The notes under the pieces were generated by a model. The model was given only the letters and a program-made list of their open reading frames with translations. It was not told the DNA's origin and searched no databases. Positions 5,947-33,020 of a DNA stretch of 35,516 bases are shown here, piece after piece; the stretch's first letter is position 1, and every line of letters starts with the position of its first letter. The stretch lies in IMG/VR virus record IMGVR_UViG_3300037504_000227, positions 75,201-110,716 of that record, one strand, 5' to 3'. This DNA is from a virus. Lineage: Duplodnaviria > Heunggongvirae > Uroviricota > Caudoviricetes. The position numbers were made by a program, and so were the translations under genes.

Positions 5947-7850
5947 AGCTTGCAAGCCCCTCCTGCACACGCAACAACTTGAGACGCCTTTGTCCAGTCT
6001 CCTTTTTCATAAGCGTACAACTTGGAGAAGTCAATCTCAGGGAATGCAGCAATGGCTTCCTCGTATTCTTCCTCAGTGATTTCCTCGTAGGGCATAATGT
6101 CGTAAGACGCATCGGACGCCGGCAAGAAAGCCATTCCCCCAATCTCGTTTTGATGCTCCCAAACCCACTCGATTAAGTCCAAGAGTTCATCTTGCTTGTA
6201 CGTGATTGTCACAGATGGATTGTGCTCTGTCCAGTTGCGCTTGACCTGTAACCAGTATTCGCACTGTTCAATTGCAGATTTGTCTTCTTTGAGAATTGCA
6301 CCATCTGGAGCCTTGACAGGGAAATGAACCCACCAATCTGTTCCATTATCCCTTGTCATTGGCACACCGGCATCTTTAAGTACTTTGAACATCGGAGTGG
6401 AAGAATTAACTTTAATGTTGCGCATATAGTATTGGGAGTGCCAAGGGTGAATGCCACTAGAGCACCCCAACAGAACACTTGAGTTTCCGCTTGGCTTAAC
6501 GACAGTTGTTGCTGTTGATTGCTTAATCCCTAACCTTTCGGCATACTCCTTGTTAACTTTAACTGCGTGCTTGCGAAGCTCCCTCTGGACATTCGGATCA
6601 CGGGAGACAAGTGAGTCCATTTGCCCAGCAAGGTCTACGCCTAACAATCTCTCTTTCTCACAACTGCGCTTCCACTCTGGCCTCAAGCCAGGGAAGTGCG
6701 TTGCCATAGATTGAATTGTGCCTATAATGGTAGCAAGCTCAACTTTCCGCTTCAGGGAGTGGAATGTGTCATCTGGGCGCGCCACAGCCATTGTTAAATT
6801 GCATAATCCGACCGGCTCTGAAATTACACTCTCGCCACAGGGATTTATGCCATAAACACCAAACTTTCTCCGTGCTGGCTTTGTGTTGTTCGCAGCGAAA
6901 CGCGAGAAGATCCCTGGCTCTCCATTCCCGCCTTTGTCCATATCCAGCATAAATCTGGCAATCTCTGCCTGACTCTGGTAAGGTGGTAGCACAACAGAAT
7001 TGTTGGCGTTGTAGCGGTATTTCTTCTTTCTGAGATCGCCGTTTTTGGCGTGGCGCATTACATCGTCGTCGTGGTCGAACAGGGAGATCATTGCGGTTCT
7101 GCGTACACCACCACACACAGATGCTTGCCCGATGGCACACATAATGTCGTGGGCGTCGATGGGGCGCAGACACTTCCCCTGACGCTCTAGGATCGTTTCT
7201 CTGACGAAATCCAGCATCCAACGTAGTGGATCAGGACCAGAGGCTCTACCGCCCTTAGTCATCAGCGGCGCGCCGGCAGGACGTATCTCAGAGTAGTCAA
7301 ATGACAAATCCTGCCCATTCATCCAGGCGATTAACCCCTGAGTCAACGCCTCCGCCCATCCCTCAGAAGAATCAGGGATAGTAAACGTGCCAAGATACAC
7401 ACCTGTTTGTCGCTTAACCCTAGGCAACCGTTCGACGTATCGCTTCTCGACAGAGAATCCAACGCCACATCCTGACATTGAAATGATTAGGGCCTCTATG
7501 AATGCGGCTAAGCAATCCACGACAAGATACGCACAGTTGTAAATACACAGGTTGTTTCGGCGTGCTGCCGGACCTGCCATTGCCAGTAAACGCAAAGAAG
7601 GCATCACTTCCATATTCAGGATGGCATCGTGGATCTCTCTGTAAACATTGCCATCCAACTTGCTCGCGGAGAGTTCTACCAGATACGCAACAGCGCGATC
7701 CACAGTCTCAGGCCACGTCTCGCGTCTCCCCTTGCCCCAGTCGTACCGACTGTACTTGTCGAAGAATTGGAATTGCTGGATAGCTGTTGGAAAGTATAAT
7801 GCTGATTTATCAAATGCTCGTCTAACGGGTTGGGGAACGCTAGAAGTCAA
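5943..7850 (-). CDS. nrdJ: Class II (B12-dependent, monomeric RTPR-like) ribonucleotide reductase
   Basis: RRETW.E.V.R, MPS.R, NCAY, GCGVGFSV, catalytic NPCGE and LCNL, KPSG, C-terminal CAGGAC. Confidence 0.93.
   Translation of the reverse strand: MTSSVPQPVRRAFDKSALYFPTAIQQFQFFDKYSRYDWGKGRRETWPETVDRAVAYLVELSASKLDGNVYREIHDAILNMEVMPSLRLLAMAGPAARRNNLCIYNCAYLVVDCLAAFIEALIISMSGCGVGFSVEKRYVERLPRVKRQTGVYLGTFTIPDSSEGWAEALTQGLIAWMNGQDLSFDYSEIRPAGAPLMTKGGRASGPDPLRWMLDFVRETILERQGKCLRPIDAHDIMCAIGQASVCGGVRRTAMISLFDHDDDVMRHAKNGDLRKKKYRYNANNSVVLPPYQSQAEIARFMLDMDKGGNGEPGIFSRFAANNTKPARRKFGVYGINPCGESVISEPVGLCNLTMAVARPDDTFHSLKRKVELATIIGTIQSMATHFPGLRPEWKRSCEKERLLGVDLAGQMDSLVSRDPNVQRELRKHAVKVNKEYAERLGIKQSTATTVVKPSGNSSVLLGCSSGIHPWHSQYYMRNIKVNSSTPMFKVLKDAGVPMTRDNGTDWWVHFPVKAPDGAILKEDKSAIEQCEYWLQVKRNWTEHNPSVTITYKQDELLDLIEWVWEHQNEIGGMAFLPASDASYDIMPYEEITEEEYEEAIAAFPEIDFSKLYAYEKGDWTKASQVVACAGGACKL
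6406..6415. repeat. Dispersed motif TTAACTTTAA, copy inside nrdJ
   Basis: Exact copy. Confidence 0.8.
6553..6562. repeat. Dispersed motif TTAACTTTAA, copy inside nrdJ
   Basis: Exact copy. Confidence 0.8.
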
Positions 7851-8034
7851 CTCGCACGCCCCTTTCGTTTACCTTGATAATATCGTATCCTACAACCCGT
7901 TCACCGTCATAAATCCACCTAACTTCTTCGCCCTCTTCCAACACAACAGAAATCGGACCGCTTGAAGCCCGATCTTCCCACCTTGCAGACTGTGGGGCGA
8001 ACACTTCTCTTTGTCCATCACTCAATTTGGCCAT
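7840..8034 (-). CDS. Hypothetical protein
   Basis: 64-aa ORF overlapping both neighbours in the operon. Confidence 0.6.
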   Translation of the reverse strand: MAKLSDGQREVFAPQSARWEDRASSGPISVVLEEGEEVRWIYDGERVVGYDIIKVNERGVRVDF

Positions 8035-8209
8035 CGTTTATCATCCTCATAGTCCATTTCTCAGGTAGGGGAAGCTTCTCTGCACTCGACACACGCTTCA
8101 CCTTAACAGGCTGCTTGCCGTGGAGTATGACAACGTATTCCCCATACCCACTTGTTCTTTCAAAGAATCGAATCAACTCCATATACCGTTCGACAGTCTC
8201 CTTGTCCAT
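8018..8209 (-). CDS. Hypothetical protein
   Basis: TAATG coupling with the upstream stop; SD GGGGG. Confidence 0.6.
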   Translation of the reverse strand: MDKETVERYMELIRFFERTSGYGEYVVILHGKQPVKVKRVSSAEKLPLPEKWTMRMINDGQIE

Positions 8210-9588
8210 TATCCCCCCCAATTCCACTCAGGCATATCATTCCTGAGCGCATCAACGTAACTTTCACCGACCATCATCTTGCCATCATAAATCGCCGTTG
8301 CGCTGTCGTAGTCAATATGAATGCAGAACACCTGTTCTCTCTCATCTGTGTATTGAATCTCGCCAAATGACTGACGCCACTGACGCTCTCCGTTGTTTCC
8401 AGGCACTCTGTCATCCAGGTGACACAAACACCCTATCGTATATGAATAGACTGTCACTGTGCTATCTCGATAGTGCAGGGTCTTTGGCGTTTTCTCATCA
8501 CGGTGAACATGCCCATTTACCTCAGAGACACAAGCATCCTTCACAACAGCCTTGGCTGTATTGCCTGGAACACGAGCAGTATTGCCGTGCCGTATCCTGA
8601 ATCCATCCGTGAGCCAGTAGGTAGATTTACCATCGTCGTATCCACCAATCCACCTGATCCCTAATGACTCCAGATCCAACAGGTGGGGGATTGACATCGA
8701 CGGGAATACATCGCCAATGGCCGTGATCTCATACGCCGCCTCGAAGTTGTCCAGGATTAGACGCATCAGGCGGGACTCGTGGTTACCCTCAAGGAATATA
8801 ATCTCTGCCTCTGGTTGCAACATCCTGATCTTGGCAAGAATCCAGTGCATTTCTTGCAGGGCAGGCTGCGTCGTTCCTCTAAACTCAGGCGTCTTGCGGA
8901 AGTGATTTGTCCACTCTGTCCCGTCCAGTAAATCACCGTTCAAAACAATCACGTCGAACGTTTGTTCTTGCAAAACCTGGAAGATAATGTCAATCGCACG
9001 CCGGTCGTGGAACGGAGTTAGCATCGCATCCCTAGATCGCTTCAGGAACCCAACGTGTAAGTCGTTAATAACAAGGCATCGTTTGACACCACTGGTTACA
9101 TCACGCTTTGGATACCCAAATGTTACACTAGACCGTATAGGTTGAACTGTTGGGAAAATCGCCTCTGGCTCTCTGCGCACGAAGCGACACTTCACCTGAT
9201 AGTTCTGGATCTGCATCCACCCGTCATTGGTCTTGTTCTTCGCAGGCGTGGTCCAGGCATTGTACAGAGGCTTCATCGCAACCCAAACGTCTGTGTCGAT
9301 CTCGCACGCCTCGATCAGTTGCGGAAGTCTTTTGATGGCAGTTGACTTGCTCGTAACCACCATCTCATTTTGGCTAAGCTCCCTGACTGTGACTTGTTCC
9401 TGTTCTGCAAACTCTCCGCTTGCCTTGGCTGCTGCGTAGTATGCCCTACAGTTTCTCTCGCTGCGATTCACTTCATCGGAGATTTGTTCCCAAGTGAGGT
9501 CCAGATCCTCATTGTCCCTAAGAATCACCACTTGACGGGCGATCTCTTTGGTTTCGTACTGCATCGTGTCCCAGTTGTACTTAGCCAA
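8209..9588 (-). CDS. Calcineurin-like metallophosphoesterase with an N-terminal HTH-like region
   Basis: NDLHVG, NGDLLD, EGNHE, IRHG, GHVH motifs; SD GGAGG and TTG start. Confidence 0.87.
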   Translation of the reverse strand: MAKYNWDTMQYETKEIARQVVILRDNEDLDLTWEQISDEVNRSERNCRAYYAAAKASGEFAEQEQVTVRELSQNEMVVTSKSTAIKRLPQLIEACEIDTDVWVAMKPLYNAWTTPAKNKTNDGWMQIQNYQVKCRFVRREPEAIFPTVQPIRSSVTFGYPKRDVTSGVKRCLVINDLHVGFLKRSRDAMLTPFHDRRAIDIIFQVLQEQTFDVIVLNGDLLDGTEWTNHFRKTPEFRGTTQPALQEMHWILAKIRMLQPEAEIIFLEGNHESRLMRLILDNFEAAYEITAIGDVFPSMSIPHLLDLESLGIRWIGGYDDGKSTYWLTDGFRIRHGNTARVPGNTAKAVVKDACVSEVNGHVHRDEKTPKTLHYRDSTVTVYSYTIGCLCHLDDRVPGNNGERQWRQSFGEIQYTDEREQVFCIHIDYDSATAIYDGKMMVGESYVDALRNDMPEWNWGG

Positions 9589-10078
9589 AATAGCCTCCTA
9601 TTTCAGACCAGTCGTTGACTCTAGGTGAATAGTCGCCTTGATTATATGTCCAGTTAAAAAGAATGCAAGGCATGTGGCGAGCCAAGCGCCTTGCAGTCCA
9701 GAGGTTATCTTCGATAAACAATTCTAGCCCAAGAAGCAATGCTACAGCAACCTTGTCGTTACTGTGGATTACGTCAACTTCGGGGAACCTGTTCCTGCGA
9801 AGCCACTGGATCGTGTTTGGTGCTGTGTGCTTTGGGCGTGCCGTGATGAATACAAGATCGTGCTCCGAGCTTAACTTTAGTGTCGTCTCAGCAGCTCCAG
9901 GGAGAGGCAGAAGATTGTCGTAGGTGCCCGGCGAGTCCACGAAGTCCCATACCTCTCGCTTCCTGTCGGGGAACATTTGTTCTAGGGAGTAAGCATTGGA
10001 TACAGGTGTGCCAAACCGTTCTATGACTGCGGGGAAAAACGACGCGCAAACGCCGTCGATGTCTATTCCAACTTTCAT
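9581..10078 (-). CDS. 5'(3')-deoxyribonucleotidase (NT5C-like HAD)
   Basis: GIDIDGV motif I, ITAR motif II, K and IEDN motifs III/IV. Confidence 0.87.
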   Translation of the reverse strand: MKVGIDIDGVCASFFPAVIERFGTPVSNAYSLEQMFPDRKREVWDFVDSPGTYDNLLPLPGAAETTLKLSSEHDLVFITARPKHTAPNTIQWLRRNRFPEVDVIHSNDKVAVALLLGLELFIEDNLWTARRLARHMPCILFNWTYNQGDYSPRVNDWSEIGGYFG

Positions 10079-11250: not shown

Positions 11251-11256
11251 AGAGGC

Positions 11257-11265
11257 ATTATACCA
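11257..11265 (-). promoter_or_regulatory. Extended -10 promoter (TGGTATAAT) for a leaderless C5-methylase mRNA
   Basis: TG-N-TATAAT lies 6 nt upstream of ATG 11250, with no SD. Confidence 0.65.
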
Positions 11266-11361
11266 CAAAAATCAAAAAAGCGAACTTAAAACTATCTTAG
11301 GAAGCTACCACCAGTGCCACAGTCAAAACCAGCCAAATCACGAATATCCCAAGTGCGTGAT

Positions 11362-14300
11362 TTATCCAGTGTATGGACCTCGGAGGATCCTCCCGTTGCT
11401 TCTCTTCCTCACCTTGTTGCACCTGCACGCACTCAGACATATACGCTCTCCTATTGGCTTCAACACACCGACTGGCACCCAGCCCATCTCTGCATCGCCC
11501 TCACACTCATCACACACTCTACCATCGCCTTGTGTGACAAGCTTTTCCTGAACAACGTCGTTCGGCAACGTTGCTGGGATTGCATCGTTCTGATACAGCT
11601 TGTAAATCTCACCTGAGTACATCGACACGCGATATTTCAGGGAGCGAAGCGACGCACCCACAACATCCTTGAGAACATCTAGTGGGGCTTGTGTATTCTC
11701 ATTCATAGCAACGCCAATCTTGCGTCGAATATCTGGCACAAGCTTTTCTTCGATGTACATATAGGCTCGGTTCAGATTGCGCGAGATCTTATCTAATGCC
11801 TGACGATCTGGCTCTCTACCTGTGGTCAAGGTCCAAACAAGGAATGCCGCCTCTCTCAATCGCATCCTCATTCTCTCAGAGAGCATCATCAGCATTTCTT
11901 CTACAAGTTCAGCATTGTCCTCAAGCAACCCCTGCTTTAGCTGTTCTAGCAAGAATTGAATAGATTGGTCATAATCTGCCATCAACGCTTGACCAAGTTT
12001 ATCCACCAATTCAATCGCTTGATCGTATGTTAGAGGGAACTCATACGGAACGTCTGCAAAGTTAACTTCCTCTGAGTCCTCAGATGGATTAGCCCAATCA
12101 TAACATGACCAGAAGCCTGCTGCAAATGGATCTTTCTTCGTGCTACAACTGTGGCGCGACAGGAAGTTCTTGCGAGCCTCTTTGTTGGTCCTGCGCATTG
12201 GCATATCTGGATCGGCGTAGTGAACCAGCCTTTCCTTATCCTTGTACTTGACTGTGCGCATCCACGCTTTGTCGTCTCGGCTTGAGGATCTGCGACGTGT
12301 GGCACGGCACGTCACACCGTTGTAGGTATACCTGTAGAATTTAGCGTCGCCAAACTCCTCTTCTTTGGGAGGCTCAATCGGCTCTTTGTCAGATTCGACA
12401 GGCTGATTTGCTTTCAGCAGAAGCCCAGGCTCTTGAATCTCAGGAAGCCCAATGCGACGGCGTGTTGCCTGCTCTGTCTCTAGGTCGTATGTGATCCCAC
12501 CAGCGTCCAACAAGCGCGCCACGATGTTTGCATACCCCTCAACGTCCAGCTTCGCAATCGGAACGAAGTGAATCTCAGGCATTGCTCCCTCGTGCCCGTT
12601 CAGCTTCATTAACCTTGGTATGCCGTGACGATTGATAACCGAAGCAACTTGCTGTAAGAATCCGTTAACTGCCTTAATGAACAAGGCTGACTTGTCCGCG
12701 TGCATCGCCCAAGATCCCTGATCCCCACCACCAAGCATCAGGAAGTCAGCCATAATTGTGCGCGCCATGTCGCGCTGGTGACGTGTGATCGTTTCTCCTG
12801 GACTGATTGGCGGTGAACCCTTTGGCATTTCGTAGCGGAAGCTCCAACCAAACGGCTCAGTTAGCCCCATGTCGTCGCCCAGCTTGATGTTACGCACAAT
12901 CTTCTTTGCGCGAGACAGATCAGATGTGGAATCACTGTCTGTAGTCGCCCCATCAGGCATACCCATCACAGGCGTTCCGGACATGCGCTCAATAACGATT
13001 GCCTCTTCAATCTTTAGGTTTTTAGCAAAGAACCAAGAGGTGTACGCGCCTTCGAAAATCGAGTTGTGCGTCGGTATCATTCCCTCTCCAGCAAGGAACA
13101 AATGACTTGGCCCATCTGTTTGTATACACACCGTTCTGCGTGGAGGAACCCTTTCTACTTTTGTAATATAATGATTTGTTCTTGCCCGCACGTCTTTGCA
13201 CCGCTCTATCTTTCTTGACAGTTTGAATGGAACAAAGTTGTGCGGAGTAAACTTGACTTTATATGTTATTTGACATCCGTCTCGCTCTTTTGTTGTTATT
13301 CTGGCATCGCCGCCGAGAGAGCGTATTAGTTCTGCGGCACCATATGCAAGATTCCTGTTTGTATTTGTGAATTCGCATCTGCCCCATCTGTCAACTGTTC
13401 CATCGCTGTCCATTAAGCCCTGTAGCAATTCGAGTCTTTGTTTGCGAGACGACATCAAGTATCGTCTTGGAATATGCTTGTTGTTTAACACGCCGATTGC
13501 ATTTAATTTCCAGGACACCTTGTATATTCTTATCATCCTGCCCTTGCCGCCCCGCAGGCCGTTTCTTGACACCCTTGTATCATACCCGTATGATTCAAAT
13601 ATAGCAACTGTCTCTGGAACATCTTGAACGTGAGATGTAACTATCCCACCATTGGAATGCCCGTCGCCAAGCCATTGGCCAAGCAGATATGGCTCAACTA
13701 CAAGTTCCATGTGAGGATAGTCAAGCGACTCTGCCCACGGTATGGCGTGGTTGTTTATGTAATATTGCTTGCCATTCTTTTTGCCGTGTGGCTTCTTGAC
13801 CGTCTTGGCGATTTGCTTTGTTGTTCTAACCCTGCCCCTTTTGTGATATGCTCTTTCGCGAGCATTCTCGGTATACCACTTGTGGCTTTCGTCAGCAATT
13901 ATTTCTACGCCAGTGTCAAAGGTTACTTTGTAGCAAGGTCTGTTTTCCCAATCCTTGCGACCAATAACATATCTTATTCTGCCCTTCTCATCAAACACTT
14001 TATTTCCCGGACGCAGATCGTCTATTTTTCTCCATCCATCTGGCGTAACGATGGGCGTGTTTGGGTCAAGAGCCCTTCCTTCAGGAGAATTCTTGCCGGC
14101 ACCAGTTGTGGTGAAGTGCAACATCTTCTCGATTGGGATATACGGCGGTCCCATTTTACGAGAGGAGTTGCTGATCTGAACCATTCCCTGAAGCCCACCA
14201 TTTTCGTCCAGATCCCAATGGAGTAGTGTGGTTGGGTGACGGGGTGCCCACTTGCGCCAGTAGATTCGTCCGTCGTCCCGGCGCTCATAGACCAACTCAA

Positions 14301-14649
14301 CATCGAAGAACCCATAGGCAAGGAAGTACACAATGTCACTCATTGTCTCAGAGAACGATTTAGTCATTGTCGTCAGATTCTCTTTGACAAACTGCGCCTG
14401 CTCTACATCAGCGTCATCATCTGAGGCAGGCAGAATATCCCACTCAGCCTCTCGCATGAACATGGTCGAAACCATCATCATCGCAGACCCGGTAGGGTCA
14501 AGCCTTGAGATCTCGTCCCAGATCTTAATGCGCTTCTCGTTGGTCAGTAGATCTGTAACCCACTGCTCTTTGACATAGCCTGAATACTCGTCAAGACCAG
14601 TGACGCCGATCTCACTCATCAGACGTGATTCTATCTTGTTATCTGCCAT
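11362..14649 (-). CDS. Portal protein (Mu gp29/DUF935-like) with intein, fused to a small Cys/His domain and a MuF-like head domain
   Basis: Downstream of terL; YGFFDVELVY, IP.EK.LH, N.PEGR|SIF..AY motifs; C-terminal CDEC...GW.P...C...CRC. Confidence 0.85.
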   Translation of the reverse strand: MADNKIESRLMSEIGVTGLDEYSGYVKEQWVTDLLTNEKRIKIWDEISRLDPTGSAMMMVSTMFMREAEWDILPASDDDADVEQAQFVKENLTTMTKSFSETMSDIVYFLAYGFFDVELVYERRDDGRIYWRKWAPRHPTTLLHWDLDENGGLQGMVQISNSSRKMGPPYIPIEKMLHFTTTGAGKNSPEGRALDPNTPIVTPDGWRKIDDLRPGNKVFDEKGRIRYVIGRKDWENRPCYKVTFDTGVEIIADESHKWYTENARERAYHKRGRVRTTKQIAKTVKKPHGKKNGKQYYINNHAIPWAESLDYPHMELVVEPYLLGQWLGDGHSNGGIVTSHVQDVPETVAIFESYGYDTRVSRNGLRGGKGRMIRIYKVSWKLNAIGVLNNKHIPRRYLMSSRKQRLELLQGLMDSDGTVDRWGRCEFTNTNRNLAYGAAELIRSLGGDARITTKERDGCQITYKVKFTPHNFVPFKLSRKIERCKDVRARTNHYITKVERVPPRRTVCIQTDGPSHLFLAGEGMIPTHNSIFEGAYTSWFFAKNLKIEEAIVIERMSGTPVMGMPDGATTDSDSTSDLSRAKKIVRNIKLGDDMGLTEPFGWSFRYEMPKGSPPISPGETITRHQRDMARTIMADFLMLGGGDQGSWAMHADKSALFIKAVNGFLQQVASVINRHGIPRLMKLNGHEGAMPEIHFVPIAKLDVEGYANIVARLLDAGGITYDLETEQATRRRIGLPEIQEPGLLLKANQPVESDKEPIEPPKEEEFGDAKFYRYTYNGVTCRATRRRSSSRDDKAWMRTVKYKDKERLVHYADPDMPMRRTNKEARKNFLSRHSCSTKKDPFAAGFWSCYDWANPSEDSEEVNFADVPYEFPLTYDQAIELVDKLGQALMADYDQSIQFLLEQLKQGLLEDNAELVEEMLMMLSERMRMRLREAAFLVWTLTTGREPDRQALDKISRNLNRAYMYIEEKLVPDIRRKIGVAMNENTQAPLDVLKDVVGASLRSLKYRVSMYSGEIYKLYQNDAIPATLPNDVVQEKLVTQGDGRVCDECEGDAEMGWVPVGVLKPIGERICLSACRCNKVRKRSNGRILRGPYTG
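13063..14073 (-). mobile_element. Class-3 (Ala1, WCT) intein with LAGLIDADG homing endonuclease, 337 aa
   Basis: Starts ALDPNTPIVTPDGW, ends IPTHN before Ser+1; block B ADESHKW, block F TVCIQT, block G THN; endonuclease motifs LGQWLGDG and LQGLMDSDG. Confidence 0.93.
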
Positions 14650-14673
14650 ACAACCCCCAGATAGGCGCAAATA

Positions 14674-14704: not shown

Positions 14705-14714
14705 TTAAAGTTAA
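14705..14714. repeat. Dispersed motif (TTAAAGTTAA on +), upstream of portal
   Basis: Exact copy just after the stop of 14717-15058. Confidence 0.8.
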
Positions 14715-14716
14715 TG

Positions 14717-15058
14717 CTACTCTTCGAGCGTGAATAGATGTGCGGCATGCGAGCTTGAGAACGAAATACCCAATAGCCAAACGCCAAGGTTAAGCCATTG
14801 TTCAAGCCCAGCAGGGAACGTCGCCCAGCCCAGTCCAACGCCAACGCTATACATCGCAAAGCTGGCAATCAAGCCAATTACATAGGCCAAAATCCGCATC
14901 ACCTGACGTGAGTTGAAGGCAAAGATCTGTGCCTGAACGTTGGTCAGCCAAGCAGCAATATTCTTGCCAATTGGCTTCTCAAGCAACCAGAACGCCACCA
15001 ATCCACCGCCGCCGCTCGTTAGAAACGGCCAAAGCAATCCCTTGAACAGTCCTTCCAT
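14717..15058 (-). CDS. Small multi-pass membrane protein (holin-like)
   Basis: 113 aa with about 3 hydrophobic segments; SD GGAGG. Confidence 0.6.
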   Translation of the reverse strand: MEGLFKGLLWPFLTSGGGGLVAFWLLEKPIGKNIAAWLTNVQAQIFAFNSRQVMRILAYVIGLIASFAMYSVGVGLGWATFPAGLEQWLNLGVWLLGISFSSSHAAHLFTLEE

Positions 15059-17727: not shown

Positions 17728-18022
17728 ACAAGACGCAATAGAAGAACTAGATGAAGCCACACGCTACATTGTCATCGAACGCGATCAGGGAAAGTGTGTA
17801 GACTGCAGCAAGCCATACCACGACATTCACGAAATTGTCTCAAGGTCACACTTCGGCACCCGCCACCTAGACAAATGCTTCAAGGTCAAGAATCGGTGCT
17901 GTGTATGTCGCAGATGCCACGACTATTACCAGGGCGATCACATCAAGGAGTTGCTTGAGCTGATGCAAGAGAAGTATAGATACGATTACTCAGAGCGTCC
18001 CTGGAGTCTTCACCTTGGCTAA
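17717..18022 (+). CDS. Small HNH-type (NinG-like) endonuclease
   Basis: RDQGKCVDC...HEIVSRS...CVCRRCH. Confidence 0.7.
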   Translation: MGLRQDAIEELDEATRYIVIERDQGKCVDCSKPYHDIHEIVSRSHFGTRHLDKCFKVKNRCCVCRRCHDYYQGDHIKELLELMQEKYRYDYSERPWSLHLG

Positions 18023-18551
18023 AGAACGAGGCGAAGCCGGTCCTGAAGCTGGAATCTCTATGCGGTCGTGGGGATGGTTTGCCTACGCCGTCAGGGACGC
18101 CACGCGATGCCCATACTGCGGCAAGCTTATCTTCCCTGGGGCAACTGGCGGAACGTGGGATTACAAGAAGGTCGGTGTCCCTATTTGGCCCAGTAGAAAA
18201 GTCGCGTTTATAGATGTCGAGGTCAAGGCCGGGCACACAAGCATCCCATTCTCATCTATAGACGAGAGGAAGCGTGAGTGGGCAGAGCAAGAGAGAGATC
18301 GACAGAAGTGGCTTTGGTTCTGTATCGGGAAGAACGCTGTGAATGCGAGGGAACATCCCAGACGAACGTGGCTTTTCCCCTACAGGCTGTTCCTGAGACT
18401 AGAACAAAAGTTCGATAGAAAGTCTATTCCATATGATTGTGAGGAATTGAGGGAGTATGAACTTGAGTGGGACGGAGATAGAACGTGGGTGATTCCCAAT
18501 GGACACCCGCTTCAAAAATGGATTGGAGGCACTAATGGACAGCTCAATTAA
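18015..18551 (+). CDS. PD-(D/E)XK nuclease with a Zn knuckle (RecU-like)
   Basis: CPYC; WDY...IDVEVK..HTSIPFSSI pattern. Confidence 0.55.
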   Translation: MAKERGEAGPEAGISMRSWGWFAYAVRDATRCPYCGKLIFPGATGGTWDYKKVGVPIWPSRKVAFIDVEVKAGHTSIPFSSIDERKREWAEQERDRQKWLWFCIGKNAVNAREHPRRTWLFPYRLFLRLEQKFDRKSIPYDCEELREYELEWDGDRTWVIPNGHPLQKWIGGTNGQLN

Positions 18552-18723
18552 CTTTAAGATCGAGGCGCACAAGAAAGAGCAACTGGAAGAGCTTGCTGGT
18601 GGCGGACTCTCAAATCTGATGCGCAGAATCATTGATGAGTATCTGGCAGGCTTCGAGAATAAAGAAAACGTCGTTCTGACTAATTCTGGCAGGCGGGTTA
18701 AAGTTACAGTGGAGGAGATGTGA
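18535..18723 (+). CDS. Ribbon-helix-helix DNA-binding protein
   Basis: SD GGAGG; beta strand SINFKI, helix EAHKKEQLEELA, G turn, helix LSNLMRRIIDEYL. Confidence 0.65.
   Translation: MDSSINFKIEAHKKEQLEELAGGGLSNLMRRIIDEYLAGFENKENVVLTNSGRRVKVTVEEM
18548..18557. repeat. Dispersed motif TTAACTTTAA at the nuclease stop / RHH start
   Basis: Exact copy containing the TAA stop at 18549-18551. Confidence 0.8.
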
Positions 18724-19790: not shown

Positions 19791-22700
19791 AAACGGAGGA
19801 TTTGAACAAGAGTGGGTAGATAATCACACAGTTACAATCTACCCTGTGGACGGTGCGCCATACGAGGCAGAGCGGGGGAACATCTTCGTGTTGCCCGGAT
19901 GGGAGGTATGGTTTAAGCATAAGGCAGGAACGTGGGACCAACCAGAGGTCACAGACATTTGGGCGTCTGCATACGATTATCGTGTAAGGTCTGGGCAAAA
20001 GGCGCAAAAGTTTTTCACCACTGGCAGGCGACACGACGGTGGATACAGACAGCAAATTAACGTTAATGCTGGGCAAAAGATTAGAGTGACAGCTTGGGGG
20101 CACGCCTGGAGTAACCACCACGACCCAGACTTATTCTATTGCTACGAGTGCTGGGAGCCAGTTCGCTTCAACCCAGACCAAGAGTTTACAGCTTGCCCCA
20201 ATTGCGACACGCCTCTGAGCAGGCAGGTTCTACACGACGCCAACCGATATGTCTTTCCACATCCCAACGACGGCAAGTGGAGCGAGGGGACAGGGATTGG
20301 GTATAACATCGTGGCCCTAAATCCAAGCGAGATTCCAGAAATGAGTGGCGATCCACAGAACGACGCCATTGGGAACATTATGCTTTCTGTTGGCATCGAC
20401 CCTACAGGCAACACAAATCCGTTTGCGTCAACAGTTGTCTGGAACTCCAAGGCTATCTACAATGGATACAAAGAGTCTATCACAGTTGAAGCTGTTGCAC
20501 AGAGCGAAACGATTACAATATTCCTGAGAAGCACAACGCTGTATGCGTTTAAGCACAATGATGTGTATTGGGACGATGTTAGCGCAGAGGTTGTGGATGA
20601 GTCTCCACTACCACCAACAGAATGGGATTATGACGTGGTAGAAACAGGGAGCAAACTGTCGGTGCACACCATCAATACAGATGGGGTTCCTGGATTTGCT
20701 CAGACCTTAAAGGACAATGGTATAGGGTTTGCCGTCATCAAGGGCGTGGACAATCTTGGGTGGCTAGTGGATGCAAAGCAAAACTATCCAGACTCAACCA
20801 TTGTCGCCAGACTGGTACACGACTACGAAAGGTGCCCAGACGTTCACTTCCCTGAGACTGACCTAGACAATCTGGCAGACAATATTTTCAGTGCGATCAC
20901 AGACGCATGCGACGCGACCAATGGACTAAAAGAGGCTGTGGATTACTGGGAGCCAATCAATGAGCCAGATCCACCTGGAACAGATGGCTATCGACGCCTG
21001 TCCGAACTGCAGTTCAAGCTTATGGATCGGGCAGAGGATTACGGTGTCAAGATTGCCATCTTCACCCTCAACGCAGGCACGCCAGAGTGGGATGAAGCAC
21101 AAGCTATGGTGGAAACAGGCGTGTTCGGCAGGGCAAAGCAGGGAGGACATATCCTAGCCCTTCACGAAGGCGTCTTTAGCCCATACGATCCTGTGGACAC
21201 GTGGTGGGGCGATGACATCCCTGGCGTGCCAGATGGGCTTGGCGAAGAGATCGGCGCGGGAGCACTGTGCTTCCGCTATCGGTATCTGTACCACCTGCTA
21301 CAAGAAAGAAACGAGGTCATTCCCCTTGTTGTCTCTGAGTGGTGCGGTTATGACCAAGGGCCACTGACGCCAGACGATGTTTTGCAACGGGTTGAGTGGT
21401 ACGATACGAAAATGCGAGAGGATTACTGGGCCTGGGGATTCTGCCCATTCACACTAGGACCAACGTCTGGATGGACAAGCCACGACTACGAGTTTGCCTA
21501 TCAGACCATCGTAGACTATATGATCTCCATTAAGGATGAACAAAATGGACTTCCAACAGAAGATCCAGCGCCGCCAGAGGAGTACTGGGGATTTCCAAGA
21601 GAGCAGTATTCACGAACATATGTTCTAATGCCACCTGGGCTTGGAGTTGACTGGTACATTCAAGCACAGATCGGAGGATTCGAGAAAAGGCTAACAGTTG
21701 GGTCCAGCGCCGACGATGCAGGCATTGGCTATCTAGATGACAAGACTGTTTTGGCAATCAACCCAGACCTATGGACAGATGACTTGCAGGCTTTCTTCAC
21801 GAAACACTACCCACACACGACGTATCGTGTTGTAAACGCTAGTACGCCAGAAGAGCTGGCATTAAAGTTAATGCCGTCTTCCGATGGCGACTTGACCGTT
21901 TCGCAAAACAACCCACTATGGGCAAACGACGATCTGGGCGAAGAGCCTGGAGGGGAAACCATTGGAGAGGCTGGGTGTTTGCTGTCGGTCGCGTGTATGA
22001 TTCTAAGAAAGGTGTACAATCGCAACATCATCCCGCCAATTCTGAACAAGTCACTTGAGCAAAGCGGGAATGCCTTCTTCGAGGACGACCTGCTTTCCTG
22101 GAACGACGCAATCAGCAAGTACCCCGCGTTTGATAATTCGGCCAAGATCAATAGCAGTTTCGCGATCTCTGATCTGGCTCAGATGCAGGACGATGGATGG
22201 GAGATCGGACTTAGAGTGAGTGGCGGATCTCACTTCGTCTACCTAGAATATGCAACAGATCAATTGCACGTCATCGACCCTTGGGATGGAGAACGCAAGA
22301 CCTGGGACATCAACGATGTGTCTGGAATCAGAGCAGCACACGTAGCAGGGGGAGAGCCAAAGCCACCAAGCGACTTAAATGTAATAGGCGTACATGGCTC
22401 GCCCATCTTGTCACCGCCTCCACGAGAAGATTGGGGTTTCTGGATCTCAGAGATGAAGGTCATGGGCGTCAAGCTCTACAAGGTGCTGGATAGCGGAGGT
22501 GCTGATAACATCGACTGGGTAAATAGACTAATGGAAAATGGGATCGAGCCAATCGTCAGAGTGTTCTGCGCACAACAATTCCCATCCAGGTTGCCACGCG
22601 GCCTGATGGACAGGGCAAAGCAACTAATTGATGCCGGCGTTAAGAAACTAGAGATCGGGAACGAACCAAACCTTCCTGGAGAATGGCAAAGCAAATTCCG

Positions 22701-27145: not shown

Positions 27146-27177
27146 AAAAAGCCCCCGAAAGGGGGCTTCTTCGTTTT
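27146..27177. terminator. Bidirectional intrinsic terminator
   Basis: AAAAAGCCCCC-GAAA-GGGGGCTTCTTCGTTTT between convergent operons. Confidence 0.88.
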
Positions 27178-27189
27178 ACAGCAGGCTTG

Positions 27190-28257
27190 CTACAGATGCA
27201 TTGGCATTATGATATGCCACAGGGCAGGGAACTCAGAGCACCTAACCTGAAGTGGTGTATTCTCCCCATTGCATCCCAGATAGACCTCCCCCTTCATTAC
27301 CTTGAGAGCGTCAACCAAATACTCTCCATTTAGCCCGACACGTACATCCTCGCCCTCTACTTCAGCCGGGACAAACGACACACCCTCCCCTGTGTCTGCC
27401 CACCCGCGCACAGATAGGCCGTCCTGAGTCACATTAATGATAACTACATTCTGGTAATCTGAGGCAAACAGCATCGCCGCCTCTACAGCGCTAGCAAAGG
27501 TTTCACGCTCCTGCACAGTGATGTTGATGTTGCTATCTCCACGCGCCTTGCTAACATTCGGATAATTGCCTGCCAGTAGATTGCTGAACATCCAACATTC
27601 ATCGCCCACAAACAAGAGCGAGTTTCCAACTGCCTGCAGTTCAATATCATCTGTCCTGGCATACTTCCAATTCACCAACGCCGCAGATGGAATGTTGGCT
27701 TCACCATCGCCGTAGTCGGCGAACGTTTCGTCCATCGAGGCACGAGTGCCATCCGCGCCACTAATCGTAACACGTCCCCCTTCTACCTTAACATTAATTG
27801 ATTCTAGGATAGGCATTGGGTTTTCCTTGTCGATAGTAGACAGGATATGCCGAACTCTCCTCTGAAACTCGTCATTGCTCATACGCAAGATTGTCTCGCC
27901 CCCCTCGATGTCTGGGAGAGGGAAATCACCGCCAGAGATTGGCAGCGCCATTTCAAAACTGCCACACGAAAACTTCAACTCGCTATCCGTGCTAACGATC
28001 TCGACCTCTCCATCAACTAGATTTACCCAATCGCGCAACTTCTTTGCACTAACTGCCGCTTCGCCTTCCTCTACAACATCACAATCAGAAATCGACTGCG
28101 CCCAAGTGTGACCATTTGTGCCAATGATCTGTAACGCACCATCTGCCGCAGAGAGAAAGAGTGCCTTGTAGATAGGCAAAGTGGAACGTGAAGGCGAAGT
28201 CCGATACGGGCATGCGATTGTGTCAGCCAAAACGTCAGCATTAACTTTAACTCTCAT
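27190..28257 (-). CDS. dnaN: DNA polymerase III beta sliding clamp
   Basis: 355 aa; IGTNG, GDFP, PILE.I, GADGTR, L.G.YP, GLNGEYL.DAL, IMPMHL. Confidence 0.92.
   Translation of the reverse strand: MRVKVNADVLADTIACPYRTSPSRSTLPIYKALFLSAADGALQIIGTNGHTWAQSISDCDVVEEGEAAVSAKKLRDWVNLVDGEVEIVSTDSELKFSCGSFEMALPISGGDFPLPDIEGGETILRMSNDEFQRRVRHILSTIDKENPMPILESINVKVEGGRVTISGADGTRASMDETFADYGDGEANIPSAALVNWKYARTDDIELQAVGNSLLFVGDECWMFSNLLAGNYPNVSKARGDSNINITVQERETFASAVEAAMLFASDYQNVVIINVTQDGLSVRGWADTGEGVSFVPAEVEGEDVRVGLNGEYLVDALKVMKGEVYLGCNGENTPLQVRCSEFPALWHIIMPMHL
28241..28250. repeat. Dispersed motif TTAACTTTAA at the upstream stop / dnaN start
   Basis: Exact copy; 19/20-bp identity with the 33011 site including flanks. 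Confidence 0.8.
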
Positions 28258-28423: not shown

Positions 28424-28674
28424 CTCAAGCCTCCCTTCCACTGATTGTACGCATTCACTAACTCCTGTGCCGGGATAATCTGTCCCAGCCTGCGATTTGC
28501 CATCCCGTCCAAGGAAGACGACAGAGCCTCTGCATACTGAACGAGATCCACAACCCAAGGATAGCAAACTGTCCCCACGACTGTTTGTTTGCCTGTTTTG
28601 TCACAAATGCCCGTCTTGAGCAGAGGGCAATTCCGTGAGCAAAAGGCAATCCCGCCATTGATCTTAGGCTTCAC
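28420..28674 (-). CDS. Cys-rich hypothetical protein
   Basis: C...CP.....C.........C pattern; SD GGAGG. Confidence 0.6.
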   Translation of the reverse strand: MKPKINGGIAFCSRNCPLLKTGICDKTGKQTVVGTVCYPWVVDLVQYAEALSSSLDGMANRRLGQIIPAQELVNAYNQWKGGLR

Positions 28675-29395
28675 CTTCTTCCTCCATTCTTGACAACGTT
28701 CTACTTACGTGACTCTCGGAACAACCAACCTCAAGTGCAATCTTGGCTTGCGTCCACTTAGGATGCTTGGACGCAAGATAAACAATTGCCTCTTGCTTAC
28801 TCATCTTGTCTAAGTCAACTTTTGATTCCTCTTTCTTGTCTGGCTTAGGTTTTTCTTCATCGCCGCTCTTGATTTCTGCAAGAAGCTGTTGTTTCCTGGG
28901 CAAGTATTTCTTGCGGCTGTAAGGTGAAATTCCTGACAGAATCATCTCGTCAACCCGCTCCCTGTGAACCTTGCGCATCGACAATACAAACACGCCTGTC
29001 GCGCTCAGGGCAGGGAAGATCAGCAAAGCCCAATCCTGAAACTCATTGGGCGGCTCAAGGAAGACTGTAATTAAGATCACAGCAATGAAATACACCACGA
29101 CCATCCATCGCGCTGCCTTCTCTGGCGCTTTTCTCGGCTCATCCTCTGCAATGGTTCTGTTATGTTCTGAGAACTCCATAGCTGTACTGATCGCGCTGAA
29201 TCCCAACAACTCAACGACCGCCGCTGCGATCCAGGCTATCCAGGACTTAAAGTTAAGGCTGGACACAAGCGATCTCTGGACAACGTATGCTGTGGGCATA
29301 GGTGCAATCCAAGGCGAGAACCTGGCCGCGATGTCGGCGGCGAATGTCTCTAGCGCCTCTAGTGCCCTAACGAATCTTTGTAGCAACCGAATCAC
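28664..29395 (-). CDS. Multi-pass membrane protein with C-terminal HTH (SpdB/DUF2637-like architecture)
   Basis: About 4 TM segments, a charged linker, HTH WTQAKIALEVGCSESHVSRTL. Confidence 0.68.
   Translation of the reverse strand: MIRLLQRFVRALEALETFAADIAARFSPWIAPMPTAYVVQRSLVSSLNFKSWIAWIAAAVVELLGFSAISTAMEFSEHNRTIAEDEPRKAPEKAARWMVVVYFIAVILITVFLEPPNEFQDWALLIFPALSATGVFVLSMRKVHRERVDEMILSGISPYSRKKYLPRKQQLLAEIKSGDEEKPKPDKKEESKVDLDKMSKQEAIVYLASKHPKWTQAKIALEVGCSESHVSRTLSRMEEEGEA
29247..29256. repeat. Dispersed motif (TTAAAGTTAA on +)
   Basis: Exact copy inside the membrane-HTH gene. Confidence 0.8.
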
Positions 29396-30487: not shown

Positions 30488-30680
30488 CCTCGACTAGAGG
30501 AACAAGCACTTGACCGTCATCGCTGTAGCAATATCCCACATCAAGAACCTCTGTGGACCCATCAAACCCTGCCATTTTACAAACCTTATTGTATGTGAAC
30601 CCTTCGCCCATATACCAGAACATTACGGCAACCATAACGCACAGAACCAACAAGCCGATCCGCTCACTCCAATTATCCAT
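30471..30680 (-). CDS. Small membrane protein, paralogue B2
   Basis: TM + C..AGFDG.......YCY..DG. Confidence 0.62.
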   Translation of the reverse strand: MDNWSERIGLLVLCVMVAVMFWYMGEGFTYNKVCKMAGFDGSTEVLDVGYCYSDDGQVLVPLVEVVNAR

Positions 30681-30682
30681 GT

Positions 30683-30874
30683 CTAACCTCCTCTATACTC
30701 TACGCCTAACTCTCTAGCAAGCCTCTTCAAAACATATTCGTGATTCCTAGACTCAATCTGCCGTCGCCCGTGCGTATTGTGGTGGCGACGGAGTTGCTTT
30801 TCTCCGATCTCTTTACAGCTACAAGTTTCGATTTCCCCTCCGCACGCTAGGCATTTCGTCACTGTGGCCTCCAT
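30683..30874 (-). CDS. Small Zn-finger-like protein
   Basis: CLAC...C.C; start uncertain (ATG 30874 or GTG 30862). Confidence 0.55.
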   Translation of the reverse strand: MEATVTKCLACGGEIETCSCKEIGEKQLRRHHNTHGRRQIESRNHEYVLKRLARELGVEYRGG

Positions 30875-30881
30875 TATACCA
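30873..30881 (-). promoter_or_regulatory. Possible extended -10 promoter (TGGTATAAT)
   Basis: Same 9-mer as the C5-methylase promoter; no good -35; repeat motif just upstream. Confidence 0.35.
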
Positions 30882-30901
30882 TATAATCATCGTCGCCGAC
30901 C

Positions 30902-30911
30902 TTAAAGTTAA
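30902..30911. repeat. Dispersed motif (TTAAAGTTAA on +) at the stop of 30908-31339
   Basis: Exact copy containing the TAA stop. Confidence 0.8.
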
Positions 30912-31339
30912 CCCGACTCAAGCTCCCTGTATGCTTCCAAGGCGCTTCCGTATCCACCATCATTCCTGTATGCAATCTCATTGGCAATTGCTAGCAGCAG
31001 CGCAGCCTCACATCGGTGCTCTTCATAGCAGTAGTAAATAGCAGACAACGCATTAATAATATGGTGCAAGTAATGGACGCCAACGCGCTTTCTTATTTCA
31101 CTTCCAGTCATGCCCGCAATCATGAAAGTGTCATCTTTGTTTTCTTTAACCCATGGACCAAGTTCGCTTTTTTGGCCAACCATCGCCCGAATGCGCGCAG
31201 TGAAGAACCACTTAATTCTACAAACTTCTGTGTCGAGATGGTCAATGTCAGGCCCCCTAATGGCAGACAGAATATGGTAGAACTCTTCATCATTGACCAA
31301 AACAGCCAGCGCCCTTTTCTTCTCTTCGTTATTCATCAC
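30908..31339 (-). CDS. Hypothetical protein, paralogue A2
   Basis: SAIRGPD...FTARIRAMVG...VGVHYLHH. Confidence 0.72.
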   Translation of the reverse strand: MMNNEEKKRALAVLVNDEEFYHILSAIRGPDIDHLDTEVCRIKWFFTARIRAMVGQKSELGPWVKENKDDTFMIAGMTGSEIRKRVGVHYLHHIINALSAIYYCYEEHRCEAALLLAIANEIAYRNDGGYGSALEAYRELESG

Positions 31340-31572
31340 TCCGCCTCCTTGATAAGCAATCCCAGAGAGAACATTTCCCTATCAACGCCATCGCCTTGGT
31401 AGCAGAACATCACGCCATCAGAGCGAATCGCGCCATCGTATCCAGCACTCTCGCACGCACGCCACACAGCATCGTTAGATTCACTGGTGCCCCAACTATG
31501 CCCCACGCCAAAAGAAAAAATCATCATGGCGAGCACCGCGATGAAGATCAACACAATCTTGCTATCGTCCAC
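31336..31572 (-). CDS. Small membrane protein, paralogue B1
   Basis: SD GGAGG and GTG 31572; TM + C..AGYDG.......FCY..DG. Confidence 0.62.
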   Translation of the reverse strand: MDDSKIVLIFIAVLAMMIFSFGVGHSWGTSESNDAVWRACESAGYDGAIRSDGVMFCYQGDGVDREMFSLGLLIKEAE

Positions 31573-31987
31573 TTTGTTCCTCCCATTCCATATATTTGTC
31601 CAAAACCTTAACATACTCATTGTTGCGTCGATGGGCAATGGCCCAAGCGATCCTGTACAAACACATCGCCTCTTCATCGTGCTCAGGGAAAATGTTGCCA
31701 ATCTTATGCAGCGCACTGCCAACGTGATCAAAGTAGTGCACCCCCACAATCTCGCAGATTCGATTCGCTGGGACATTCGGGATGCTGTTGTGCCACTTGA
31801 CATCACGAGTCAACACAAGAACCTCTGCGTCCATCCCGATCATCGACCGAAGGCGCGCAGTGAACAAATTCTTCACGGCATACACAACATCAGGTGGTTC
31901 AGAGGCATCTGGACCTCTGAGGGCCGTAGCGATGACGTATGCCTGCCAGCTATCCGCGACGGCTTGAATCAACTCTTTTTCATCCAT
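31562..31987 (-). CDS. Hypothetical protein, paralogue A1
   Basis: TALRGPD...FTARLRSMIG...VGVHYFDH. Confidence 0.72.
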   Translation of the reverse strand: MDEKELIQAVADSWQAYVIATALRGPDASEPPDVVYAVKNLFTARLRSMIGMDAEVLVLTRDVKWHNSIPNVPANRICEIVGVHYFDHVGSALHKIGNIFPEHDEEAMCLYRIAWAIAHRRNNEYVKVLDKYMEWEEQSGR

Positions 31988-32243
31988 TGTTGCTCTCCTT
32001 TAGGGGATGATCTTGCACTATTGGATATTCATCCCCCACGCCAATTTTTGCCTGTTCTAGTTCATCAGCGCAGATAAGGTAAGCCACTCCACAATTTGAG
32101 CATGAAAACACAGTCGTTCCGAACCCGGAAATCAAGGTGCGCCCCTGTCTCTCTCCTGTTTTGCACACAGGGCATCCATATGCCTCGTAGTCCGAGAAAC
32201 TAATAGCCATTTTGCTTGTAGGTTGCGGCCCCCATTTACCCAT
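31980..32243 (-). CDS. Zn-ribbon protein
   Basis: CPVC...CSNC. Confidence 0.6.
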   Translation of the reverse strand: MGKWGPQPTSKMAISFSDYEAYGCPVCKTGERQGRTLISGFGTTVFSCSNCGVAYLICADELEQAKIGVGDEYPIVQDHPLKESNNG

Positions 32244-32682
32244 TTTGCACCCCTTTCTCCCATTCAGCAATCGAGCCAGGAACCATCACAAACAGCGGAT
32301 GCACCAAGGGCTCAGACCAGTCAATCTGACCCAGCCATTCAGGATCACGCTCTTTCAGCTTGTCGATTAGATGCCCAAGCTCAAAGTAAAACTGCCCAGA
32401 AGTCACTGTCATTCTGTGAGCCGGGTCAGCTTCGTACTGGATCAAATCACGATTATAGTTGTATCCGCGACGGACGGCCTCTACCCAAATCCAATGTAGA
32501 TATGTCCCAATCATTTCAGGACGATCCTTGAAGCGAATGAGTTGGGGATGATTGGAATATCCAACATTTTCTTCATCGCTCTCTAGCCTTTTAAGAATGG
32601 CCTGTGCTCCAAGCCCCTCACGCCATACGGCGTTCAGTCCCAGGTAATCCAGCAGCGACGGATGCAGACTCCAAAGTCTCAC
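32236..32682 (-). CDS. Pyrimidine dimer DNA glycosylase / endonuclease V-like
   Basis: MRLWSLHP..LD..GL.A.WRE.L.AQ...GY.NHPQL.RF signature. Confidence 0.88.
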   Translation of the reverse strand: MRLWSLHPSLLDYLGLNAVWREGLGAQAILKRLESDEENVGYSNHPQLIRFKDRPEMIGTYLHWIWVEAVRRGYNYNRDLIQYEADPAHRMTVTSGQFYFELGHLIDKLKERDPEWLGQIDWSEPLVHPLFVMVPGSIAEWEKGVQNG

Positions 32683-33011
32683 TCTTGCACCTCCTCAATA
32701 CGCCCACACAGTTCATCGAATGGCAAGTTCCTCTCTAGTGCTTCCTTCACTATATCATGCACGCACCGATCTGCAAGTGACATCTGTCCTGTTTCTGAGG
32801 TGACACCTCTCCACCCATCTTGGCCGCTATCGAAGAAGTCCTTGCGCACGCTCAGGTAATGCTCTGTATCCTCAAGCTCAAGAACCTCCAAGAGTGTAGA
32901 GATTGCTGCTGTGACCGCAACCCTATCCGGTGAATTCTCGAATGGAGCGCAATCATCCAGCGCCTCAAGATATTTGTCCATCAACTCGCAGATCTCTCCA
33001 GGTGACAACAT
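32679..33011 (-). CDS. Hypothetical protein
   Basis: SD GGAG; ATGA coupling to the downstream gene. Confidence 0.65.
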   Translation of the reverse strand: MLSPGEICELMDKYLEALDDCAPFENSPDRVAVTAAISTLLEVLELEDTEHYLSVRKDFFDSGQDGWRGVTSETGQMSLADRCVHDIVKEALERNLPFDELCGRIEEVQE

Positions 33012-33020
33012 TAACTTTAA
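33011..33020. repeat. Dispersed motif TTAACTTTAA between a stop and the next start
   Basis: Exact copy covering the TAA stop and the A of ATG 33011. Confidence 0.8.

Follow-up and report, generated by a model that had tools for sequence, protein, structure and literature searches.

A dispersed 10-bp word as a predicted network of protein-binding sites in the genome of an uncultivated phage

In several plasmids and phages a single regulator acts through a dozen or more dispersed sites. This holds for KorB of RK2, C1 of P1 and the inverted repeats of phiC31, with some sites at about -40 and some far from promoters or in genes; the sites of KorB, a protein of the ParB family, and those of phiC31 are palindromes, and the P1 operators all lie at promoters. 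In another layout, the pho boxes of PhoB and the MotA boxes of T4 are activator boxes that replace the -35 element, the pho boxes being tandem 11-bp repeats bound by a phosphorylated dimer. The stoperators of cluster A mycobacteriophages are more than 20 asymmetric 13-mers located in promoters and short junctions and bound by a monomer; their orientation follows transcription and reversal abolishes repression (PMC9283540). The element described here is a 10-bp word, TTAACTTTAA, dispersed over the genome of an uncultivated phage (IMG/VR record IMGVR_UViG_3300037504_000227), a record of 110,716 bp that is classed as complete and has a terminal repeat of only 86 bp. The window is the final 35.5 kb of this record (35,516 nucleotides, positions 75,201 to 110,716), and coordinates refer to the window unless marked as genome coordinates. 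The copies of the word are read as a network of predicted binding sites for one phage-encoded, sequence-specific DNA-binding protein, a reading for which the balance of probability is about even.

The word resembles the stoperators of the cluster A phages L5, Bxb1 and TipsytheTRex in that one short asymmetric site is present in many copies, here 20 exact and 19 with one mismatch. In placement the agreement is partial: the word occurs in promoters (two exact and seven variant boxes) and in short junctions (11 of the 20 exact copies are junctional or intergenic), but nine copies are deep in genes. The phage also carries a tyrosine integrase (Phage_integrase, E 1e-17); it may therefore be temperate and, if so, may encode an immunity repressor. 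In contrast to stoperators, whose orientation follows transcription, the word is oriented 10:10 relative to genes, and its core spans 10 bp rather than 13. The initial annotation had proposed a stoperator-like system; its many dispersed copies and their enrichment at junctions stand, but because orientation shows no tie to transcription and nine copies are intragenic, the word should not be classed among stoperator systems. A repressor of cluster A type was not recognised, no search having been aimed at this repressor family. The nine promoters described below share with PhoB and MotA promoters a good -10 element, the lack of a -35 element and a conserved box at a fixed upstream distance, and the leading candidate binder has, in its predicted structure, the PhoB/OmpR effector fold. 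Unlike pho boxes, the box is a single element of 10-13 bp, the candidate lacks a receiver domain and most copies lie outside promoters. As in the KorB, P1 C1 and phiC31 layouts, the sites are dispersed, some at promoters and some far off or in genes; no ParB-family match is among the listed Pfam families of the phage, each list giving at most 25. Only a handful of cultured phages and plasmids are known to have operator networks that span the genome; the present one is predicted in a deeply divergent, uncultivated 110-kb phage lineage. Its signal is unusually clean, with 20 exact copies, a measurable protein cost and a direct tie to a promoter class.

Copy number, asymmetry and selection of the word

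The nine exact copies that the initial annotation had located in the window were all recovered at the same positions and on the same strands, and the variants it had listed at 9871, 18698, 20057 and 27788 are likewise real. In dinucleotide-preserving shuffles of the window the word occurs 0.04 times on average and never more than once. The more general pattern TTAANNTTAA is found 11 times in the window against 0.35 expected, and matches to TTAACTTTAA with one mismatch 14 times against 1.28. When the k-mer enrichment test that had been proposed alongside these claims was run on the whole genome, TTAACTTTAA emerged as the commonest 10-mer of all 110,716 bp, its 20 exact copies comparing with 0.11 expected under an order-3 Markov model; 19 other sites deviate from it at one base. 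As a control, the reversed pattern of TTAANNTTAA occurs twice in the genome and TTAANNTTAA itself 26 times. Chance or composition as the source of the word is ruled out by the dinucleotide shuffles, the Markov model and the reversed-word control.

The centre of the 26 TTAANNTTAA sites reads CT/AG in 20 and the palindromic CG in three, the latter giving the perfect palindrome TTAACGTTAA. The first T of TTAACTTTAA is its least constrained position, and the core TAACTTTAA is present 27 times in the genome. The flanks carry modest information, with CAGCA before and CYTCG after the word, and the best flanks belong to junction copies; the 20-bp consensus of word and flanks is CAGCATTAACTTTAACCTCG and the palindrome form is ATTAACGTTAAT. 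Since the site is thus asymmetric both in its centre and in its flanks, a symmetric dimer is not indicated. This part of the earlier proposal, which envisaged a dimeric binder, falls away, while a non-random, orientation-free signal at the level of DNA, enriched at junctions and identical to a promoter box, remains of it.

The genes, called by a heuristic codon-usage score, number 186 and cover 91% of the genome. Within them TTAACTTTAA occurs 13 times, against a mean of 0.99 and a maximum of 4 in 500 within-gene shuffles of synonymous codons; the enrichment thus survives the codon-preserving control that had been suggested for it. The peptides that the word can encode point in the same direction. 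Seven of the 11 [FLIV]KV[KN] peptides of the proteome are spelled with TTAACTTTAA, the chance of this being about 0.04 for each peptide as estimated from codon usage, and so are all four [FLIV]NF[KN] peptides. In addition, word-type peptides are in excess in the proteome, at 11 compared with 2.6 +/- 1.7 in residue-shuffled proteins. The in-gene copies align without gaps to conserved positions of orthologues in uncultivated relatives of the phage, described below, and the residues that spell the word are present in this phage alone. At one copy the phage reads K-I-V-L-N-F-N-R where five relatives have ...N-L-x-R, a change of L to F (LNL to LNF). The two word copies in the ribonucleotide reductase gene give R-N-I-K-V-N and A-V-K-V-N, where relatives have R-I/R-I and R-I/D-I (RI or DI to KV), and the beta clamp begins M-R-V-K-V-N at the aligned word position. 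Because synonymous shuffling fails to explain the copies and residue changes that create the word are found at aligned positions, TTAACTTTAA appears to be selected as DNA, strongly enough for conservative amino-acid replacements.

Placement of the copies and the promoter box

Ten exact copies lie on each strand and the orientation relative to the local gene is also 10:10, which bears out the earlier statement that strand bias is lacking; along the genome the strand order is irregular (+ + - - + + - - - + - + + - + - + - - +). The equal frequency of both orientations argues for double-stranded DNA as the target. The claimed preference for gene junctions was likewise recovered, 11 of the 20 copies being either no more than 30 nt from a gene boundary or outside coding DNA, compared with 22.7% of positions (p 0.0017). 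Nine copies are found between -60 and +30 of a start codon, a zone comprising 16.5% of positions (p 0.0026), six contain the TAA stop of a gene, and nine are deep within genes. The virion/glycan block, which spans 39 kb or 35% of the genome, holds only three copies (p 0.04). The sole cluster in this sparse block consists of four TTAANNTTAA-type sites (47682, 47800, 48198 and 48961) in two adjacent conserved genes at genome 47381-49148. The copies show no association with terminators, and their clustering in pairs is not significant (8 gaps shorter than 400 nt, about 5 being expected by hand count). A hairpin or cruciform was ruled out, as the flanks are complementary only at 21862 and at genome 16422.

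Nine promoters of the genome display a WTAnYTTTAAGGT box, exactly 20 nt and then the extended -10 element TGGTATAAT, with no -35 element. The spacing is invariant and the orientation single in all nine, the promoter form of the box being GGGATAGCTTTAAGGTCG. Two members lie in the window (30911-30873 and 11295-11257, minus strand). Exact TTAACTTTAA serves as the box in two of the nine (genome 20558 and window 30902), the other seven having variants. A weight matrix was built from the seven promoters without the exact word and TTAACTTTAA was then scored over its 50 columns; the best match falls on the box itself and in its orientation. An equally good score anywhere in the 50 columns was reached by only 65 of 20,000 random 10-mers and 177 of 20,000 permutations of the word's own letters. 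At the sequence level, TTAACTTTAA is the perfect form of the promoter box WTAnYTTTAAGGT, and the reading of the word as the site of a DNA-binding protein gains support because the word is the upstream box of a promoter class. A tendency to T-C-G at +12 to +14 is common to the word copies and the box promoters, although it is strict in only some promoters.

Counted from the -10 hexamer, the box occupies about -45 to -36, which is too distant for a -35 hexamer and corresponds to the binding place of class II activators or of repressors that occlude the -35 region. Ordinary TTGACA-17-TATAAT promoters are also present in the genome and are used by the relatives too, so that the host polymerase does not depend on the box. 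At the other 18 exact copies no -10 element stands at the right distance downstream, and hidden promoters there were rejected as neither a -10-like element nor a conserved column follows the word; the nearest case is an antisense TATAAT 22 nt past the copy at genome 71905. In the closest relative, G001, known from a 64-kb fragment only, CTCTAAG is found at the same spacing before extended -10 elements. A search of IMG/VR for the same promoter design gave four single matches, about the number expected by chance by our estimate, and none of them is enriched in the word. Around two of the box promoters, at genome 20164-20567, three copies fall within 400 nt: a variant of the box near -41, then an exact copy near +10 and a second exact one that forms the box of the next promoter.

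Candidate binding proteins and rival explanations

The Pfam scan took in 174 of the 186 predicted proteins, with matches mapped back onto the genome. The leading and best-supported candidate binder is a 77-residue protein encoded outside the window (genome 62779-63012), which is predicted to be a stand-alone winged helix of OmpR/PhoB type and matches the Pfam family Trans_reg_C (E 8e-5). In line with its candidacy, none of the five relatives examined has a Trans_reg_C match, and the same relatives lack TTAACTTTAA; no homologue of the protein was found in IMG/VR. Its AlphaFold (AF2) model has a predicted local distance difference test score (pLDDT) of 81 and a predicted TM-score (pTM) of 0.70 and displays a helix-helix-long helix-beta hairpin arrangement with three helices. 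Nearly all leading Foldseek matches of the model are DNA-binding domains of the OmpR/PhoB family (RstA, PhoP, CpxR, ToxR, PhoB and OmpR; TMq 0.6-0.73). Domains of this family read AT-rich half-sites such as TTAA(C), GTTAA and YTTAAK, as in CtrA (TTAA-N7-TTAAC), ArcA (GTTAATTAA) and PmrA (YTTAAK). The protein lacks a receiver domain and its gene is the first gene of the box promoter at genome 62731-62769. This gene opens a block (genome 62779-66109) that is absent at the corresponding place in G001; the block continues with five small open reading frames, one of which starts on a copy of the word, a 468-residue N6/N4 DNA methyltransferase and a very basic 70-residue protein.

A second candidate, proposed from its sequence, is a 243-residue protein (28664-29395, minus strand) with transmembrane segments and a C-terminal helix-turn-helix (HTH) domain, HTH_23, that scores above the cut-off; its gene contains the copy at 29247. 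A 343-residue HTH_36 protein is likely a replication initiator. The product of a 62-residue gene (18535-18723, plus strand) is a weak candidate, possibly of ribbon-helix-helix type: by eye it shows a strand (INFKIE) followed by two helices, its AF2 model, of low confidence (pLDDT 67), has a strand at residues 5-10 and then a helix, and the gene bears the word at its 5' end and an inverted one-mismatch variant at its 3' end. The protein has no match in Pfam, PHROG or PDB, and no homologue was found in the relatives; the gene lies between a conserved resolvase-like gene and recA, whose orthologues in G005 and G006 stand too close together for a gene to fit between them. The initial annotation had named a ribbon-helix-helix protein and an FtsK gamma domain among possible binders. 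Neither gained ground, the former having no family or PDB match and a search of the genome for the RHH_1 family giving no significant match, and the FtsK-like protein having no gamma-domain match at E <= 0.001. No sigma factor gave a significant match in the genome. One FtsK-like ATPase gene adjoins a tyrosine recombinase gene (genome 13382-15838) whose start falls on a one-mismatch copy of the word (M-K-I-K-V-K); together they may form a module for integration or one for resolution of Xer/FtsK type.

In the mechanism that is proposed, TTAACTTTAA, with its core TAACTTTAA and weak flanks, would be the high-affinity recognition site of a phage-encoded protein. Bound to the promoter box, this protein would contact RNA polymerase at the usual place of the -35 element and would either recruit the enzyme, in the manner of PhoB at pho boxes, or occlude it, the sequence being compatible with both. 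The other 18 perfect copies may act as roadblocks, as insulators or as a binding reservoir for the same protein. If the binder were the 77-residue winged helix, the position of its gene as the first of a box promoter would close an autoregulatory loop. We infer from sequence both that a protein binds the word and which protein this is, and its action as activator or repressor is a matter of the same inference. For binding work the outcome is a short list of proteins and a single 20-bp probe, the consensus given above. Should these sites prove to be bound, the copies within genes and in either orientation would represent a way of controlling or marking a phage genome that is distinct from stoperators.

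Several points weigh against this mechanism and against its leading candidate. The Trans_reg_C match of the 77-residue protein falls below the curated cut-off and its Foldseek E-values are only 4e-3 to 6e-2. The link between the candidate and the word comes from a single genome and from knowledge at the level of the protein family. In G001, a similar box is present at the same spacing and no winged-helix gene was detected in the 64-kb fragment. Other DNA-binding proteins are encoded, namely the membrane-HTH protein, the HTH_36 protein and the possible ribbon-helix-helix protein. Moreover, the box could be read by host RNA polymerase itself, and a purely transcriptional factor would leave unexplained why deep-intragenic copies are selected in either orientation.

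Four other explanations have been weighed, and that of a by-product is the least probable, being largely excluded and assigned only a marginal chance. It would derive the word from codon or amino-acid bias, or from the scars or ends of a small mobile element, and it could draw on the TAA that the word holds in one frame on each strand, which gives a natural push towards gene ends, and on the inverted pair of copies that brackets the 62-residue gene. Bias is ruled out by the peptide counts and by synonymous shuffling, which removes the enrichment; insertion scars are ruled out by the gap-free alignment of in-gene copies, which are no insertions relative to orthologues, and by the end of flank similarity within about 5 nt. 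Dinucleotide and order-3 Markov models, in addition, expect about 0.1 copies or fewer. A role in RNA, be it as an AU-rich element that enhances translation initiation or as a cassette for coupling at gene junctions, is very improbable, even though UUAACUUUAA is letter for letter the 'epsilon' enhancer found upstream of the Shine-Dalgarno site of T7 gene 10 (PMC9590205). The epsilon layout is present at genome 20213, which reads TTAACTTTAA-cct-AGGAGG-agtt-ATG, but it recurs at no other exact copy and at only one variant (genome 17543). A strong Shine-Dalgarno site, the word as spacer and an ATG follow one another at genome 27795 and at window 33011, genome 71905 having the same order with a weak AGG only; the enrichment near start codons and the TAA stops within six copies also agree with a function in RNA. 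The low rating follows from orientation, because selection could not favour an RNA signal and its complement to the same degree: the site of action of epsilon is mRNA, where it stands in a single orientation upstream of a Shine-Dalgarno site, whereas the word is as frequent as its complement and lies in genes, nine copies being deep inside them, and in promoter DNA, where two copies are untranscribed.

That the box is a promoter element read by host RNA polymerase alone, through sigma region 4 or the alpha C-terminal domain, with the other copies as weak or conditional near-promoters, is judged improbable. The fixed 20-nt spacing to a perfect extended -10 element in nine promoters, and CTCTAAG at this spacing in G001, would suit such an element, and the box overlaps the position of the proximal UP-element subsite. 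It would leave aside, however, the 18 of 20 exact copies that have no -10-like element at the right distance; these non-promoter copies are more exact than the promoter boxes and half of them would point antisense, while the canonical promoters of the genome and its relatives show a host polymerase that needs no box. The main rival, unlikely but ahead of the preceding ones, is a non-transcriptional signal read on double-stranded DNA by a phage enzyme and serving self-marking, motor loading, Chi-like recombination or protection, or nicking. Copies in both orientations, inside and between genes, under selection strong enough to change amino acids, are what such a signal would produce, and the phage encodes RecA, two FtsK-like ATPases, a tyrosine recombinase and several HNH nucleases. 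In-gene, orientation-free copies also recall uptake sequences, sites of the parS and Noc-binding-site (NBS) type and the class III operators of KorB in RK2. KOPS (FtsK-orienting polar sequences), SRS (SpoIIIE recognition sequences) and Chi, in contrast, switch their strand bias with the direction of replication or entry, a trait that TTAACTTTAA lacks, and its irregular strand pattern without polarity is a misfit to signals of the KOPS, Chi and T5-nick types. The FtsK-like proteins, in which no gamma domain was detected, are conserved in relatives without any such word, and neither the fixed promoter position nor the scarcity in the virion block is explained.

The binding-site network read by a phage-encoded protein can be taken further, in a form that appears rather doubtful. 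A lone, receiver-less winged helix of OmpR type would read a word that the phage has written into its genome about every 5 kb, accepting amino-acid changes as the price, switch on the -35-less promoters and, by way of the copies in genes, mark, insulate or organise the chromosome independently of orientation. If true, this would be a hybrid of a PhoB-like activator and a genome-wide network of KorB or stoperator type, and the relatives would have evolved different words for related roles.

Related genomes and features of the window

No relative was found in the INPHARED phage collection by a DNA search with 12 kb or a protein search with the 1188-residue open reading frame. TerL homologues at 50-68% identity point to an IMG/VR family of uncultivated phages, each about 90-120 kb in size, and the databases searched contain no relative above 68% TerL identity; prophage relatives, sought for host assignment, gave only matches below 30% identity. 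TTAACTTTAA is absent from all seven relatives (G001-G007). Three of them carry repeated words of their own, which are different palindromes, and G007 has no such repeated word. In G005 (IMGVR_UViG_3300031539_000007, 74992-87396) TTCTAGTSACTAGAA occurs 26 times within 12.4 kb, and in G006 (IMGVR_UViG_3300029288_000114, 63132-75091) TGTAAAATSATTTTACA occurs 21 times within 12 kb. The palindromes of these two genomes are near-identical copies with C or G as the centre base in all but one copy, and most precede the Shine-Dalgarno site of a small gene by between a few and about 30 nt. Both arrays lie in a region without homologues in the present phage, just upstream of the orthologue of the FtsK-like gene at genome 13382, and they resemble lambda-type operators of 15-17 bp or the 'PeSL' cassettes before every early gene of T4. 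In G004 (IMGVR_UViG_3300037826_000058) TGTAACATSATGTTACA is found 11 times, five times in the early region at 26-35 kb and six times dispersed. Judged from these genomes, genome-specific repeated words seem to recur in this phage family; the arrays differ in form and placement, and homology to TTAACTTTAA is not claimed. The words of G004 and G006 differ in each half-site by a single base, a hint that a regulator and its sites co-evolve, and genome-specific words in relatives would offer a natural series for the study of such co-evolution.

The individual features of the window are collected in Table 1. As had been described, the TAA stops of the genes ending at 18551, 28247, 30908 and 33017 fall inside copies of the word and the copy at 14705 follows the stop at 14717; the copies at 28241 and 33011 have 19 of 20 bases in common, and the GGCA...TGCC flanks around 21862 are present.

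Table 1. Copies of the word, its variants and box promoters in the window.
Feature	Position	Strand	Context
Exact word	6406-6415	+	Deep in class II ribonucleotide reductase-like gene (5943-7850, minus); sense TTAAAGTTAA = I-K-V-N; orthologues RNIRIS / RNVRIN
Exact word	6553-6562	+	Same ribonucleotide reductase-like gene, 147 nt from the 6406 copy; V-K-V-N; orthologues LRIN / IDIN
One-mismatch variant TTAACTTTAG	9871-9880	+	Within gene 9581-10078
Box promoter	11257-11295	-	ATAGTTTTAA (11295-11286), 20 nt, TGGTATAAT (11265-11257); feeds C5 cytosine methylase gene (Pfam match), almost leaderless
Exact word	14705-14714	-	Intergenic, 3 nt past stop of gene 14717-15058, upstream of portal gene; best-scoring flanks of all copies
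Exact word	18548-18557	+	Holds TAA stop of gene 18015-18551 and codons 4-7 (I-N-F-K) of 62-residue gene 18535-18723
One-mismatch variant GTAACTTTAA	18698-18707	-	Codons 55-58 of 62-residue gene, 22 nt before recA start
Perfect-palindrome variant TTAACGTTAA	20057-20066		Within 1181-residue gene
Exact word	21862-21871	-	Deep in 1181-residue gene, encodes L-K-L; GGCA/TGCC flanks
One-mismatch variant TTAACATTAA	27788-27797	+	Within dnaN-like gene
Exact word	28241-28250	+	TAA stop of upstream gene and codons 3-6 (V-K-V-N) of DNA polymerase III beta-clamp gene (27190-28257, minus)
Exact word	29247-29256	-	Codons 47-50 (L-N-F-K) of membrane-HTH gene 28664-29395
Box promoter with exact word as box	30873-30911	-	TTAACTTTAA (30911-30902), 20 nt, TGGTATAAT (30881-30873); word holds TAA stop of gene 30908-31336
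Exact word, coupling junction	33011-33020	+	Minus strand AAGGAGAG-TTAAAGTTA-ATG; TAA stop of gene 33017-33796 and A of ATG of gene 32679-33011

The portal gene (Portal_Mu, 11362-14649) contains a LAGLIDADG domain at residues 411-469, presumably an intein.

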